Virus genome (UHGV): UHGV-1522278
Direction: 5' to 3' (one strand)
Source of the DNA: a virus
Length of the DNA: 54,320 nt
Below are positions 29,086 through 41,275 of this stretch, piece by piece. The position numbers were made by a program, and so were the translations under genes. The notes under the pieces were generated by a model. That model had not been told where the DNA came from and made no database searches. It was given only the letters and a program-made list of their open reading frames with translations. Each line of letters opens with the position of its first letter. The stretch's first letter is position 1.

Positions 29086-29163
29086 AATCTGACTCACAAT
29101 CCACCACAAGTTTTTCTATTTTTCGCGTAGCAACGCGTAAACATGTATTCAGGAGTAAACATT

Positions 29164-30534
29164 ATGCCATCCAATTTAGAATTGGCGGTTAATGCTGCCT
29201 TGTCACAACGTAAGGCGGCCTATGCCCGCTATGCAGCCGCCAACCCATTCACTATGGGGATAGATGCCAAACGCGATACTGCGTGGAGTGAATACGGATT
29301 CAAAGAAGAGATCACGTATGACGACCTGTACAAACTGTACAGACGCGGTGGTATTGCTCACGGTGCTATTGAGAAAATCATCACGACGTGCTGGCGCACC
29401 AAGCCAAAGATGATCGAAGGAACTGAAGACGAGAAAGCGAAAAAGGAAACACCGTGGGAAAGAGAAATCAAGAAGAAATTTAACAACAGATTTTGGCGCA
29501 CTGTTGCTGAATGTGATCGCCGCCGCCTCATTGGTCGTTATGCTGGCCTGTTGATTCATGTAAGAGATAACCAGCCGTGGGATCAGCCAGTGACAAAAGG
29601 TGTAGGCATTGCCAAATTTACCCCGGTATGGGCTGGCGCTCTTACACCGAAGGAGTTCGAAGAAGACCCGAACAGTGAAAACTATGGCCTGCCAACGTGG
29701 TGGGAATACAAAGAACGCATTAACAGTAAGACCATTGCCAGAAGAATCCACCCTGACCGCATATTCATCTTTGGCGACTATTCTGATGATGTCATCGCTT
29801 TCCTTGAACCGTCCTATAACGCCTTTGTGTCACTTGAGAAGGTGGAAGGGGGTAGCGGTGAATCATTCCTGAAAAACGCCGCCCGCCAGCTTGCTATCTC
29901 GTTCGATAAAGAGATTGACTTCCGTTCCCTTGCTGCAACATACGATTGCGACGTTACAGAGTTACGCGAAAGATTTAATGAGGCTACTGCTGAAATGAAT
30001 AAGGGTAATGACGTAATGATGGCGTTACAGGGTGCAACAGTAAGCCCGCTGGTTACTGCTGTATCTGACCCGTCATCAACCTATGACGTAAACCTGCAAA
30101 CCGCCGCCGCTGGTGTTGATATTCCAACCCGCATCCTGGTAGGGAACCAGCAGGGCGAACGCGCATCAACCGAAGACCTCCGCTACTTCAACAGCCGCTG
30201 TATGACCCGCAGGGAGGAAATTGGCGGTGAACTTGAAGATCTGTTCCGCAAGATGGCAGATCTCCGCCTTATCAGTATGCCAATTGACGTATCAGTGATA
30301 TGGGACGACCTGAACGCCATGACCAAAGCGGAGCTACTGGAAGCCGCAGACAAGATGGCGCAAATCAATCAGGCTTGTTTGGCTACTGGTGAAGAAATAT
30401 TTAGCGGTGACGAGATCCGCGAGGCTGCCGGATACGATGGCCCTGCCAGTGTAGTTGAAACGGAAGAGGAAGACGATGATGAAGGTGAAGAAGATAATCA
30501 GGCGAATACCTCCAGCCGCGATAATGCCATCTAA
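29164..30534 (+). CDS. portal protein
   Basis: start at the second ATG (29164, AGGAG RBS); about 456 aa; acidic C-terminus; position after terminase. Confidence 0.75.
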   Translation: MPSNLELAVNAALSQRKAAYARYAAANPFTMGIDAKRDTAWSEYGFKEEITYDDLYKLYRRGGIAHGAIEKIITTCWRTKPKMIEGTEDEKAKKETPWEREIKKKFNNRFWRTVAECDRRRLIGRYAGLLIHVRDNQPWDQPVTKGVGIAKFTPVWAGALTPKEFEEDPNSENYGLPTWWEYKERINSKTIARRIHPDRIFIFGDYSDDVIAFLEPSYNAFVSLEKVEGGSGESFLKNAARQLAISFDKEIDFRSLAATYDCDVTELRERFNEATAEMNKGNDVMMALQGATVSPLVTAVSDPSSTYDVNLQTAAAGVDIPTRILVGNQQGERASTEDLRYFNSRCMTRREEIGGELEDLFRKMADLRLISMPIDVSVIWDDLNAMTKAELLEAADKMAQINQACLATGEEIFSGDEIREAAGYDGPASVVETEEEDDDEGEEDNQANTSSRDNAI

Positions 30535-31420
30535 CACCGAAGACCCGACCATGACAGGGAAGTTACGGTCTGGCGCTATCAAGCGTTTTAAAGCCTGCCT
30601 GAAGAAAGTTGCGGATCCGTATATTGCCATACTGGACAGAATGCAATATAGCCTGGCTGTTAATAAAAAATACACCTTCCAGATCTACATCGACGAATTA
30701 CATGACTTGCTGGAAGACGCCAGCGATATGATTGATGAGATATTCGACCTGACTGACCCGGAAAACTTCTGGTTCTGGCAGGAATACGTAAAGGTGGCAT
30801 ATCAGCGCGGCACTTCTCAGGAATATGCCAACCTCGCTAACCAGTCGGTCACATATTCCAGGGCTTACCCTGAAGTGTCTGCAGTATTAACCAGCCAGAC
30901 CTATCGCACCCGCCTTGCCCTGGTGCGTACCCGTGTATTTGAAGAGATGCGCGGGCTGACAGCACAGATCAAGAAGGATATGGCCCGCCGATTAACCGAA
31001 GGCATGGCCCGTGGCTTAAACCCACTCGAAATAGCGCGCACATTGCAGCAGGAAACGCAATTGCCGCTATACAGGTGCAAACGTATTGCCCGTACTGAAA
31101 TATGCACAGCGTTGCGCACAGCGCGTATGGATGAGGCTGAGGCAGCATCGGAAGAGCTTAACTTGCGCACTATGCAGATGCACATTTCGGCATTATCACC
31201 GACTACCAGGCTATCACACGCACAGCGGCACGGGAAAACGTACACCATAGACGAGCAGCGCGAATGGTGGAGTAAATCCCCCAATTCAATTAACTGCAAA
31301 TGTAGCACAATTACCGTGCTGGTGGATGAATCTGGTAACATATTAAACAAAAGAATCATTGAGCGAGCGCAAGAAAATTACAAAGTTGCGCACGCTAAAT
31401 ATGGCGAAGATTGGGAGTAA
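30524..31420 (+). CDS. head morphogenesis protein (SPP1 gp7 / Mu F-like minor capsid protein)
   Basis: about 298 aa; position after portal; start ambiguous (30476 or 30524). Confidence 0.7.
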   Translation: MPSNTEDPTMTGKLRSGAIKRFKACLKKVADPYIAILDRMQYSLAVNKKYTFQIYIDELHDLLEDASDMIDEIFDLTDPENFWFWQEYVKVAYQRGTSQEYANLANQSVTYSRAYPEVSAVLTSQTYRTRLALVRTRVFEEMRGLTAQIKKDMARRLTEGMARGLNPLEIARTLQQETQLPLYRCKRIARTEICTALRTARMDEAEAASEELNLRTMQMHISALSPTTRLSHAQRHGKTYTIDEQREWWSKSPNSINCKCSTITVLVDESGNILNKRIIERAQENYKVAHAKYGEDWE

Positions 31421-31425
31421 AAACC

Positions 31426-32697
31426 GTGAATAAAGAACTGATTCAGGTTAATACCAAATTAACCGCTAATACCATCCGCAGGGAAACATATAACGGGCGA
31501 GAACACATCGTGGTCCCGTCTTATACGTTGCCCTTCAATATCGTTATGAATCGGGAATATTACCCGGAAGCCGAAATCATTGCTAATTATCAATCTCTGG
31601 AAGGTACGCTTGCACCGCTGGGCCATCCTACGGTTAACGGTGAATTTGTTTCCGCATTTAGCCCTGAAGGTCTGAATATTGGCTTTTGTGGCGCATGGAA
31701 CAGGAATGTTGAATTACGCGGCAACCGTGTTTATGTGGAAAAATGGGTGGATGTTGAAACAGCCAGCCATTCAGAACAGGGGCGCGAATTATTAAGCCGA
31801 CTCGAAGCACTGGAAAAAGGCGAAAGCAAAGATCCGATCTGGTCATCTGTTGCCGTATATCGTGAGCGTATGCCAGCAACCGAAGAGATGAAGGCACAGG
31901 GCGCTGACAGCGTTGTCAAAATCATGTCAATTGACCATGACGCCATCTTACTACATGAACCGCCAGCCGCATCGCCAGAACAGGGCGTTGGCCTGATGGT
32001 TAACACTGACCAGGCGAAGCCGTTAATGGCGGTGGCAATGAAAGAAAACAGCTATCGCACGCTTGAAAGACAATTGGAAGAAGCGGCGCGTAAACTGTTC
32101 CCAGATGCAGATTATGTCTATGTCGTGGACTTCACTGATAAAGAAGTGACCATTGCCACTAATGCCGAAAGTGCTCAAGTTTGCACGTATGAAAAACAGG
32201 CTGATAAAATAATTCTCAATAATGGCGAGCTTGCAACCAACGAGGAAAGTAAATCCTGGTTCGCCCAGTTCGCTGAACACCTATCTAATCTTTTCTCCCT
32301 GAATGAAAAAATTAAGGCCAATAAATCGGAGGGTGAACCCATGCCTTTGACCAAAGAAGAACGCGCCGAACTGGTAAAAGAAATTAACGAAAGCATCACC
32401 GCAAATATGGCTAATGCAATCGCTGAAGCGCTTAAACCAGTACAGGCAAGCGTTGAAGAATTACAGACCAATCAGAAAGCGATTAAAGAAGAGATCGCAG
32501 CAAACGCAAATAAAGAAGAAGCAGAAAAACGCGCCGCAGTAGCAAAAGTACACGGCGAAATTGTTGCTAACGCATTAAGCGGTGAAGCGTTAGAAGCAAT
32601 GTTTAAATCCCTGGGCAAAGCAGCACCAATGGCAGCAAACTCCGCCGCTGGTGGAAATAAACCTGCCACCCCTGACATTAACAACTATTTCGCATAA
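31426..32697 (+). CDS. scaffolding-like protein
   Basis: GTG start at 31426 (GGGAG RBS); long helical Ala/Glu/Lys-rich C-terminal half; upstream of the capsid gene. Confidence 0.6.
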   Translation: MNKELIQVNTKLTANTIRRETYNGREHIVVPSYTLPFNIVMNREYYPEAEIIANYQSLEGTLAPLGHPTVNGEFVSAFSPEGLNIGFCGAWNRNVELRGNRVYVEKWVDVETASHSEQGRELLSRLEALEKGESKDPIWSSVAVYRERMPATEEMKAQGADSVVKIMSIDHDAILLHEPPAASPEQGVGLMVNTDQAKPLMAVAMKENSYRTLERQLEEAARKLFPDADYVYVVDFTDKEVTIATNAESAQVCTYEKQADKIILNNGELATNEESKSWFAQFAEHLSNLFSLNEKIKANKSEGEPMPLTKEERAELVKEINESITANMANAIAEALKPVQASVEELQTNQKAIKEEIAANANKEEAEKRAAVAKVHGEIVANALSGEALEAMFKSLGKAAPMAANSAAGGNKPATPDINNYFA

Positions 32698-32707
32698 GAG
32701 GTGAATT

Positions 32708-40574: not shown

Positions 40575-40667
40575 TCACAATCTTCCGTTTCTTGCTACAT
40601 AGCTGCGAGCAAACATCACCTGCCAGATGTTCCAGATCTCCCTCCAGGTGAATTTATCGTCATCCAT
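40575..40667 (-). CDS. micro-ORF (30 aa) in cassette B
   Basis: GAGGTGA RBS overlapping the upstream stop; Trp-rich MDDDKFTWREIWNIWQVMF... Confidence 0.25.
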   Translation of the reverse strand: MDDDKFTWREIWNIWQVMFARSYVARNGRL

Positions 40668-40675
40668 ATTTCACC

Positions 40676-40930
40676 TCATTTATGTGCCCCTTTTACGCCA
40701 CAGTGGCGGTTGTATTCCAGATGGTCAATAATTAACCACATCTTTAGATCTTCGCTGAATAACCGCCAATCGGGGTTGATGTCAAATTTATAACCGTAGC
40801 CATCGCGTAATTTTTTGGGGTTGGCCTCTTTTTTCAGGAAAGCATTTAATAAAGCCTTGCCTTTTTTGATGATCCGTTCCTGGGCGTTTTTCTGTGCTTT
40901 CAGGTTTTTGCCAATCATTACCAATTTCAT
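40676..40930 (-). CDS. hypothetical protein (84 aa, Lys-rich N-terminus) in cassette B
   Basis: GGGGTGAG RBS; no motif recognised. Confidence 0.55.
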   Translation of the reverse strand: MKLVMIGKNLKAQKNAQERIIKKGKALLNAFLKKEANPKKLRDGYGYKFDINPDWRLFSEDLKMWLIIDHLEYNRHCGVKGAHK

Positions 40931-40950
40931 AACTCACCCCACGCAATCAA

Positions 40951-41106
40951 TCAGTTGACCACTTTCAGGAAGAAATCACGGTATTCATCTTCTTTTGCAT
41001 TCATCATAAATTGACCGTATTTGAATGCATCATCAAAACCCTTCACAATCGCAACTTCCACCTGTTCGAATGCTTTGTTTAGCATTACCACTACATAGCG
41101 TTCCAT
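40951..41106 (-). CDS. small protein (51 aa), first gene of cassette B
   Basis: AAGGAGG RBS; MERYVVVMLNKAFEQVEVAIVKGFDDAFKYGQFMMNAKEDEYRDFFLKVVN. Confidence 0.4.
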   Translation of the reverse strand: MERYVVVMLNKAFEQVEVAIVKGFDDAFKYGQFMMNAKEDEYRDFFLKVVN

Positions 41107-41275
41107 ATTGGCCTCCTTTGTTGGTGCTGCTTTCTCTTCTTGATTTCTATATACATCTTGTCACGTCATGTGTGAAGCCGTTTTGTAAACTGGGTATAAT
41201 TCTTGTGACAAAGTTCTCATTTTTCGCGTAGAAGCGCGTAAAGATGTATGCAATATGTAACTTATAGGGGGAATC

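Follow-up and report, generated by a model that had tools for sequence, protein, structure and literature searches.

Two structural genes of a temperate gut phage, 12 kb apart, are preceded by nearly the same short piece of non-coding DNA, which raises the question of whether this piece is a signal common to both genes and, if so, in what form it is read. The phage is represented by virus genome UHGV-1522278, whose 54,320 nucleotides (nt) are called the window here; it is a siphophage of the mEpimmI group (relatives of mEp021), with a terL–portal region 86–93% identical to those of mEp021, mEp010, mEp013, mEp044, mEp515, mEp554 and MagusPhagus. A first-pass annotation had pointed out a 31-nt element upstream of the portal gene and of the gene for the tail-tip protein gpM (PF05939), and had suggested that it might regulate late genes, act as RNA or link modules for recombination. 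We find that the element is real, confined to the mEpimmI group among the phages examined and most likely a shared regulatory signal. As far as we searched, it is new to the literature; in kind, it is an ordinary cis-regulatory sequence.

Two copies of one element precede the portal and gpM genes

Both the coordinates and the 28 identical positions out of 31 were reproduced, with the two copies on the + strand, and a repeat search (family D15) widened their similarity to 34 nt at 88%. The copies and the leaders that follow them are:

29118–29148, + strand: portal copy of the 31-nt element, ATTTTTCGCGTAGCAACGCGTAAACATGTAT; 60.3 bits with the covariance model
41219–41249, + strand: gpM copy of the 31-nt element, ATTTTTCGCGTAGAAGCGCGTAAAGATGTAT; 66.6 bits with the covariance model
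29152–29166, + strand: portal leader, with Shine–Dalgarno sequence AGGAG (29152–29156) and ATG
41253–41278, + strand: gpM leader 3' of the element, ATATGTAACTTAT, with Shine–Dalgarno sequence GGGGG (41267–41271) and ATG

A degenerate pattern with up to three mismatches occurs at these two sites in the window and at none in 100 shuffles, and a covariance model of the element, trained on 27 family variants, gave its next-best match in the window at 16 bits (E = 0.47). Neither search yielded a third copy in the window. An exact 12-nt match near the late promoter, GTAAAGCCGTAT at 24146, was set aside as chance; it is not kept in relatives with a different upstream open reading frame (ORF) allele.

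The portal copy begins 32 nt after the terL stop codon (29083–29085) and leaves 15 nt to the portal ATG at 29164; at gpM, 26 nt separate the copy from the ATG at 41276. These distances differ slightly from the 20–30 bp given initially. The ORF finder begins the portal ORF at an in-frame ATG at 29143, within the element; alignment with homologues favours 29164 as the true start. The GenBank record of mEp021 (L001, MH706966.1) likewise begins the portal coding sequence (CDS) at the ATG inside the element, with the ribosome-binding site (RBS) AGGAG annotated inside the CDS (28919–28931). Directly after the element, that record reads ACATTATATTGCG..., against ACATTATGCCATC... in all other family members, a difference that suggests an assembly or annotation error.

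The element is confined to one lineage and conserved within it

Searching for further copies, as the first-pass annotation had proposed, gave none elsewhere in the window and both copies in all of the approximately 60 relatives sampled. In IMG/VR, an exact-pattern scan placed the core in about 45 contigs belonging to the family, and contigs spanning both regions carry two copies each, one upstream of portal and one upstream of gpM; three other matches in that database were due to chance, one of them in the 3'-terminal part of a contig from a picorna-like RNA virus. Sampling anchored on the gpM and portal proteins, which is unbiased as to the presence of the element, recovered it at 30 of 30 gpM loci with at least 84% identity and at 49 of 49 IMG/VR portal loci with an intact 5' end, where it is near-invariant in 34 distinct upstream sequences. 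Even the more distant members of the family, to which gpM homologues of 74–87% identity led, still have it. In contrast, it is absent from all 50 gpM loci at about 70% identity (other lambda-like tails), and portal homologues at 50–60% identity (44 genome loci in roughly two dozen other genera) have a short terL–portal junction and no element.

Broader searches drew the same boundary. BLAST of 45-mers against GenBank phages and PLSDB plasmids returned the seven mEpimmI phages only, Rfam 15 had no match anywhere in the window, and a genome-contig scan with a capsid-protein alignment returned no matches. When the stems were written as N, a metagenome scan was dominated by AT-rich chance matches and gave 11 family matches (about 10 contigs) with no new stem variant. 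A literature search for the element sequence found unrelated primers only, and the paper that defines the group is silent on this element and on late promoters (PMC11893012). The gpM region itself is present in 34 of 5,426 complete E. coli genomes. The element is thus specific to the mEpimmI lineage. The 78-nt terL–portal gap of the window is due to the element, and, since only in this lineage is the gap so long, the copy at portal gives the impression of having been inserted, perhaps from a copy of the gpM leader.

Relative to the most divergent relatives, the element is 84–100% identical, compared with 75–90% for flanking coding DNA and 61–94% for adjacent spacers. At the eight most divergent portal loci, the element is 94–100% identical and the 15 nt between it and the ATG are 100% conserved. 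An information profile of 36 variants shows high conservation of ATTTTT, YGCGTAG, YGCGTAAA, a T three positions further on, TAT and an invariant CA, with six free positions that include three 3' loop positions. The conserved 3' flanks read as follows:

29138–29151, + strand: 3' flank of the portal copy, TAAA-C-A-T (-10-like, with A and T invariant), GTATT and invariant CA
41239–41252, + strand: 3' flank of the gpM copy, TAAA-G-A-T, GTATG and invariant CA

Judged from these alignments, the element is under purifying selection in all sampled relatives. The prospect that related phages would fail to conserve it, which the first-pass annotation had named as grounds for doubt, is contradicted by its presence and conservation in every one of them.

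Position-specific conservation of this sort points to a function that reads the sequence, and at both loci the element is more conserved than its flanks. It is therefore very unlikely that the copies are a duplicated stretch with no regulatory role, kept as a recombination linker or a relic of gene conversion. The linker was the weakest of the three initial proposals, even though at least two different terL 3'-end alleles converge just upstream of the portal copy, loop types have occasionally been swapped between copies (portal AGAAG in L002 and L021; gpM AGCAA in L055 and L110) and weak similarity continues for about 40 nt upstream of both. The gpM copy lies away from any mosaic boundary, its neighbouring genes being conserved, and in a phage with an Erf-type recombinase (mEp021 annotation), two direct repeats separated by 12 kb would make loss of the intervening head genes more likely.

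The element travels with the transcript leader

Two candidate promoters bear on how the element would be transcribed:

24158–24186: putative P_R', TTGTGG-17-TAAAAT, with a -10-like AACAAT at 24195–24200 and a strong terminator at 24214–24232, proposed from sequence and conservation
41195–41200, + strand: candidate -10 element TATAAT of a gpM promoter, P_M, invariant in the family, with a weak -35 element GTGAAG at 41173–41178

The window's Q protein is an antiterminator of family PF03589. Just before the holin gene, about 95 nt of non-coding sequence (24150–24240) are kept in all relatives whatever the preceding ORF allele. They are arranged like a late promoter that depends on Q and has a very short, terminated leader, and we take them as the putative P_R'; if this holds, the portal copy lies within the Q-dependent late transcript. 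Our first guess at P_R' (GTGGCA-16-GATAAT, 24098–24125) was dropped; it lies in an ORF allele absent from some relatives. At gpM, the TATAAT sits 24 nt upstream of the CGCG core and 18 nt upstream of the element in every relative. P_M does not appear in the promoter consensus scan, its -35 element being weak, yet it is a plausible gpM promoter, and the element would then span approximately +12 to +45 of its transcript.

An insertion separates the element from the gene it precedes. In L078 (IMG/VR 2695420423_000006), a gene for a 157-amino-acid (aa) HNH/AP2 homing endonuclease lies right after GTAACTTAT, between the element and gpM; gpM has a new Shine–Dalgarno sequence of its own, and the element stays with the TATAAT and the leader. 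This arrangement indicates that the element belongs to the transcript leader rather than being an operator tied to the gpM ribosome-binding site, and that it acts on the transcription unit, via the fate of the transcript or via transcription itself. The same insertion is probably present in four complete E. coli genomes (H49 and H53–H55), in which the query match ends 8–9 nt early. At a portal locus, L239, the sequence directly upstream of portal seems, when translated by eye, to be the end of a similar ORF.

RNA hairpin or DNA direct repeat

The CGCG...CGCG palindrome first annotated is present in both copies, as CGCG-N6-CGCG. The same letters are equally readable as two YGCGTA direct repeats 10 bp apart, a reading that the first-pass annotation had missed:

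29124–29137, + strand: portal core; as RNA, CGCGU (29124–29128), loop AGCA and ACGCG (29133–29137); as DNA, CGCGTA direct repeats at 29124 and 29134
41225–41238, + strand: gpM core; as RNA, CGCGU (41225–41229), loop AGAA and GCGCG (41234–41238); as DNA, CGCGTA direct repeats at 41225 and 41235

Our tentative preference, at somewhat less than an even chance, is that the element is a sense-strand RNA leader element, read by a trans-acting factor that governs how the portal and gpM messages are processed, how stable they are or how much they yield. It would be a lineage-specific cis-regulatory module, placed in fixed orientation in the untranslated leader directly upstream of the two cistrons. 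Both copies would be transcribed in the sense direction, the portal copy in the Q-antiterminated late transcript and the gpM copy probably also from its own TATAAT promoter. As RNA, the core could fold into a G+C stem of 5 bp, capped by an A-G-N-N loop and bordered by a U-tract and the invariant UAAA. The hairpin and its conserved single-stranded flanks could then be the recognition site for a protein, or for a ribonuclease (RNase E, for example, with its cut in the AUUUUU tract), and this factor would decide the fate of the downstream message (its processing and stability, and hence its yield), placing portal and gpM under common control.

Several observations favour RNA. The family consensus of the core is CGCGU-AGNN-RCGCG. 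The portal copy folds at -6 kcal/mol and the gpM copy, with an A-U extension, at -12.1 kcal/mol (z = -3.1 for 39 nt), and RNAalifold predicts the same 5-bp hairpin de novo. Pairing is biased towards the sense strand: across the 36 variants, the four core pairs are paired in 143 of 144 cells on the + strand compared with 134 of 144 on the - strand, and the closing U-R pair is kept in 31 of 36 compared with 16 of 36. Ten variant rows carry C-to-U changes that retain G·U pairing, L396 and L397 have U·G and G·U changes together, and a disruptive G-to-A occurs in L392 alone. The loop is one nucleotide shorter in two contigs, L114 and L115, a change that an RNA loop tolerates more readily than a phased DNA site and that thus counts for RNA. 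The asymmetric centre, with 5' UAG conserved and 3' NNN free, argues against a symmetric dimer on duplex DNA. Finally, the portal copy is without a conserved promoter (the CACAAT upstream of it reads CACAAC in about a quarter of genomes), leaving no obvious role there for a DNA roadblock or activator. Together with the sense orientation in two leaders, these features are why we lean towards RNA.

Other observations weigh against a hairpin. Structure prediction, one of the checks proposed at the outset, did give the hairpin, but no pair shows a compensatory double substitution, and covariation measures equal those of shuffled controls. The 81-nt contexts fold no better than shuffles (z = -0.5 and -0.4), and the portal hairpin is short and weak. 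An outer A-U helix extension was rejected because 5'-side substitutions break its pairing in L387–L389 and L206. The two sites of C-to-U change both coincide with the first position of a YGCGTA unit that recurs at exactly 10 bp, and TA comes after either arm; a DNA direct repeat thus accounts for this asymmetry too, and for a larger share of the conserved positions. Conservation of nearly all 34 positions goes beyond the needs of a simple stability hairpin. There is no Rfam match for the hairpin, and we can name no candidate for the trans-acting factor.

The element may instead be a double-stranded DNA site: two tandem YGCGTA units, 10 bp apart on one face of the helix and bound by a phage or host protein, with the upstream TTTTT and downstream TAAAnRT also conserved. 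The bound protein would block or modulate transcription into both cistrons, either as an operator or roadblock in the manner of a mycobacteriophage stoperator or as a place where an elongation regulator loads at a sigma-dependent pause. We consider this a close second to the RNA hairpin, doubtful in itself but explaining more of the conserved positions. The window has no YGCGTA-N4-YGCGTA apart from these two, and TA follows the two CGCG arms in 35 of 36 and 36 of 36 variants. Recurrent core changes, all C to T, fall solely at position 1 of a unit, and in L396 and L397 they affect both units to give a perfect ATGCGTA repeat; a repeat predicts just such tolerance at position 1 and none at the G of position 4. 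The 10-bp phase is kept in 35 of 36 variants, and conservation spans about 34 bp, including the -10-like AAAnRT with its invariant A and T. The gpM copy, moreover, lies in a divergent regulatory region beside a conserved gene pair encoding a small protein and a ParE-like protein, and there is precedent in the 21Q binding element, two 6-bp direct repeats by promoter elements (PMC6606751).

A DNA site nevertheless meets difficulties of its own. No binding protein can be named. The motif is missing from the immunity region (9000–10700), so it is not an operator for a CI-type repressor, and the putative P_R' of the same phage lacks YGCGTA, which makes Q an unlikely binder. The portal copy has no conserved promoter to regulate, and a roadblock at that point would hamper lytic expression. 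Variants L114 and L115 have a 9-bp spacing, and the repeats abut a -10-like sequence, whereas in known Q and AlpA loading sites the binding element lies between -35 and -10 and the pause element further downstream. Hairpin and repeat fit the data about equally well. A regulatory cis-element, as the first-pass annotation had it, agrees with the data either as RNA or as a protein-binding DNA site; of its more specific proposal of an RNA element, the hairpin potential stands.

A bolder version, in which a dedicated phage-encoded factor reads the element, as RNA or DNA, at its two places and so couples the supply of portal to that of gpM, strikes us as improbable. If true, it would be a form of two-target regulation undescribed for lambda-like or other siphophages, joining the protein that initiates head assembly to a protein of the tail tip, and it may have arisen by copying of the gpM leader into the terL–portal junction.

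Promoter, antitermination site and other identities

Each copy might also be a weak internal promoter, with AAAnRT as the -10 element (A at -11, T at -7) and the invariant CA as the start site, at 29151 and 41252. Lacking a -35 element, it would need the help of a factor that binds the repeats. The invariant A31, T35 and C41-A42 of the 36-variant profile do have canonical spacing, and each copy precedes the opening gene of a structural block, an arrangement in line with the organisation of P2-type late operons. However, there is no -35 element at 16–19 bp and no TG extension, and the promoter consensus scan finds nothing at either copy. The resulting portal leader would be only 13 nt long and would begin at the Shine–Dalgarno sequence, an activator site inside the spacer is atypical, and portal and gpM already fall under Q-dependent late transcription, with a TATAAT upstream of gpM as well. 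We rate such a promoter as unlikely.

The published account of mEpimmI phages describes an N-like antiterminator (Gp17), a CI-like repressor, dependence on Nus factors and three nut sites that include a distal nutR2 (PMC11893012), which brings up a further boxB-type hairpin that would recruit Gp17 in the late region. The boxB hairpins of the window's own nut sites (10143–10159 and approximately 17567–17580) have short alternating G/C stems and purine-rich loops beginning with U, and variant L102 of the element has the loop UGGAAG, like that of nutR1. Against this, boxA (GCTCTTTAA) is absent upstream of both copies, whereas TGCTCTTTAA is present in the window's own nut sites, at 10124 and 17547; the loops are AGCA, AGAA, AGAG, AUAA or AUCA (AGNN or AUNN) in 35 of 36 variants and not GNRA-like, with GGAA in L102 alone; the element lies in the late region, which is the domain of Q; and its covariance model has no match at the nut sites. 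An additional nut-like site is accordingly the least probable of the identities to which we gave weight, and hardly to be expected. As to the nut sites themselves, three can be read in the window, at 10124–10159 (nutR1), 17547–17580 (nutR2) and approximately 9060–9095 (- strand), each with an rrn-like boxA (GCTCTTTAA), AATCYGG and a short CGC/GCG-stem boxB; their loops are UGGAAGU, UGAAAU and GCGA.

Most other candidates were rejected. As an intrinsic terminator, the element has its T-tract before the hairpin on the + strand and its A-tract after it on the - strand, and neither copy is in the terminator scan. An immunity operator or stoperator does not fit two copies in the window with none in 9000–10700. 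The element has no -35/-10 pair at 16–18 bp, having the -10-like AAAnRT only, and is thus not a canonical sigma-70 promoter; a CII-type or P2 Ogr-type activator site would, by its geometry, place the start site inside the gene or at its start. An upstream ORF or leader peptide was dismissed because the reading frame is not conserved among relatives. Considered as a Q-utilisation (qut) site, the gpM copy has a TATAAT upstream and repeats at approximately +19 to +34 that abut the -10-like sequence; the portal copy has no promoter, and the same motif is not found at the primary late promoter, the putative P_R' and its 95-nt block lacking the YGCGTA pair. Long-range pairing of AAGATGTAT with ATACATCTT at 41150 showed no covariation in our own reading of the family sequences, and its left arm looks like the -10 element of a divergent promoter. 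Compared by eye with the consensus sequences of CRP, IHF, Fis, PhoP, CpxR, NarL and PurR, the element gave no convincing match.

Surroundings of the two copies

Minus-strand gene blocks break up the tail genes, and one of them lies just upstream of gpM:

40352–40374: bidirectional terminator between the tape-measure gene and gpM
40676–40930, - strand: gene with a ParE-like toxin domain (PF24732), divergent from gpM
40951–41106, - strand: 51-aa gene preceding the ParE-like gene, conserved in the family

The ParE-like gene and the 51-aa gene occur as a pair in nearly all family members; L111 and L112 are without the 51-aa gene. Gene gpM and orf65 are followed by a terminator at 41831–41851. Over 32 nt (AACCCCGCTTCNCGCGGGGTTTTCTT), two intrinsic terminators, at 41825–41856 after gpM–orf65 and at 50280–50311 after the gene for an 1813-aa tail protein, are 94% identical, a second duplicated regulatory signal in the tail region. 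The 1813-aa protein, encoded by a tail fibre or J-like gene (44839–50280), contains a 36-aa tandem repeat (108 nt; 47890–49190) in seven to eight copies that are 60–75% identical to each other.

On the portal side, terL has at least two unrelated C-terminal alleles, ending in ...CGCCTGCGCGGATTTTAA or ...CAATTGGCTACATAA, and there is a third spacer variant (window 29040–29117; loci L170–L219). All of these converge approximately 25 nt upstream of the element, so that a mosaic junction lies there.

An 8-mer, CATTTTGT, occurs 18 times in the window, compared with about 1.7 expected, with the longer form CCATTTTGTAWA and the near-palindrome TACAAAATGTA. Its positions include 9222, 10028, 10495, 17455, 17520, 22555, 37932, 37958, 41179 (degenerate), 42801, 42893, 50657, 50690 and 50719, mostly in divergent intergenic regions by candidate promoters: P_L, P_R and upstream of the repressor, tape-measure, gpM and gpL genes. 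It often forms inverted pairs (for example, 37929–37968), and in relatives such a pair brackets the TATAAT and the element at gpM. The 8-mer could be the operator of some regulator or a shared -35 context (TTGTnn). Two CRP-like sites were also seen by eye, CGTGATTTAGATCACA at 42880–42895 upstream of gpL and TGTGACAAAGTTCTCA at 41203–41218, which follows the gpM TATAAT, precedes the element and is kept only in part among relatives.

Significance for late-gene control

The mEpimmI phages are recently described and common temperate coliphages of the human gut in which only early (N-like) antitermination has been studied so far. No other non-coding sequence at these two key positions of the late region is as well conserved, so the element provides a practical entry point to how the group controls its late genes. 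Should portal and gpM prove to be co-regulated through it, this would reveal an uncomplicated means of keeping head and tail assembly in balance. A mere leader hairpin or stabiliser would be nothing out of the ordinary but still useful for annotators to know, given that the mEp021 portal CDS starts inside it.

Comparison with known systems

Among described signals, lambda-type nut sites (boxA plus boxB), including nutL, nutR1 and nutR2 of mEp021, resemble the element in having a short G+C hairpin with a purine-rich loop, in sense orientation and untranslated. The element differs in having no boxA, a loop that is not GNRA-like and a place in the late region rather than downstream of early promoters.

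The loading sites of Q and AlpA, which consist of a Q or AlpA binding element (QBE or ABE) and a sigma-dependent pause element, share with it two 6-bp direct repeats by a -10-like sequence, the 21Q QBE being two copies of TGAGCA, and at gpM the likeness extends to repeats close downstream of a sigma-70 -10 element. In the known Q and AlpA sites, the binding element lies between -35 and -10, and the pause element follows it within the stretch that is transcribed first (PMC6606751, PMC9371919). The repeats of the element instead abut the -10-like sequence, whereas known sites lie approximately 20–30 bp upstream of the pause element; furthermore, the portal copy has no promoter, and the putative P_R' of this phage has no such repeats.

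Stoperators of mycobacteriophage L5 and the start-associated sequences of Cluster K phages are, like the element, short asymmetric sequences in the small gaps of structural operons, in fixed orientation near gene starts. They number 10–30 copies per genome, the stoperators match the immunity operator and the start-associated sequences include the RBS. In contrast, the element has two copies only and no match in the immunity region, and its Shine–Dalgarno sequence lies outside it.

Lastly, 5' stem-loop stabilisers and RNase E sites, such as those in the ompA and T4 gene 32 leaders, offer another comparison. Although the loop and 3' flank of the element are more conserved than a stabiliser needs, and its U-tract less conserved than the 3' UAAA, it resembles them in carrying an AU-rich AUUUUU, which fits the RN|WUU cleavage pattern, 5' of a hairpin and upstream of a polycistronic cistron.

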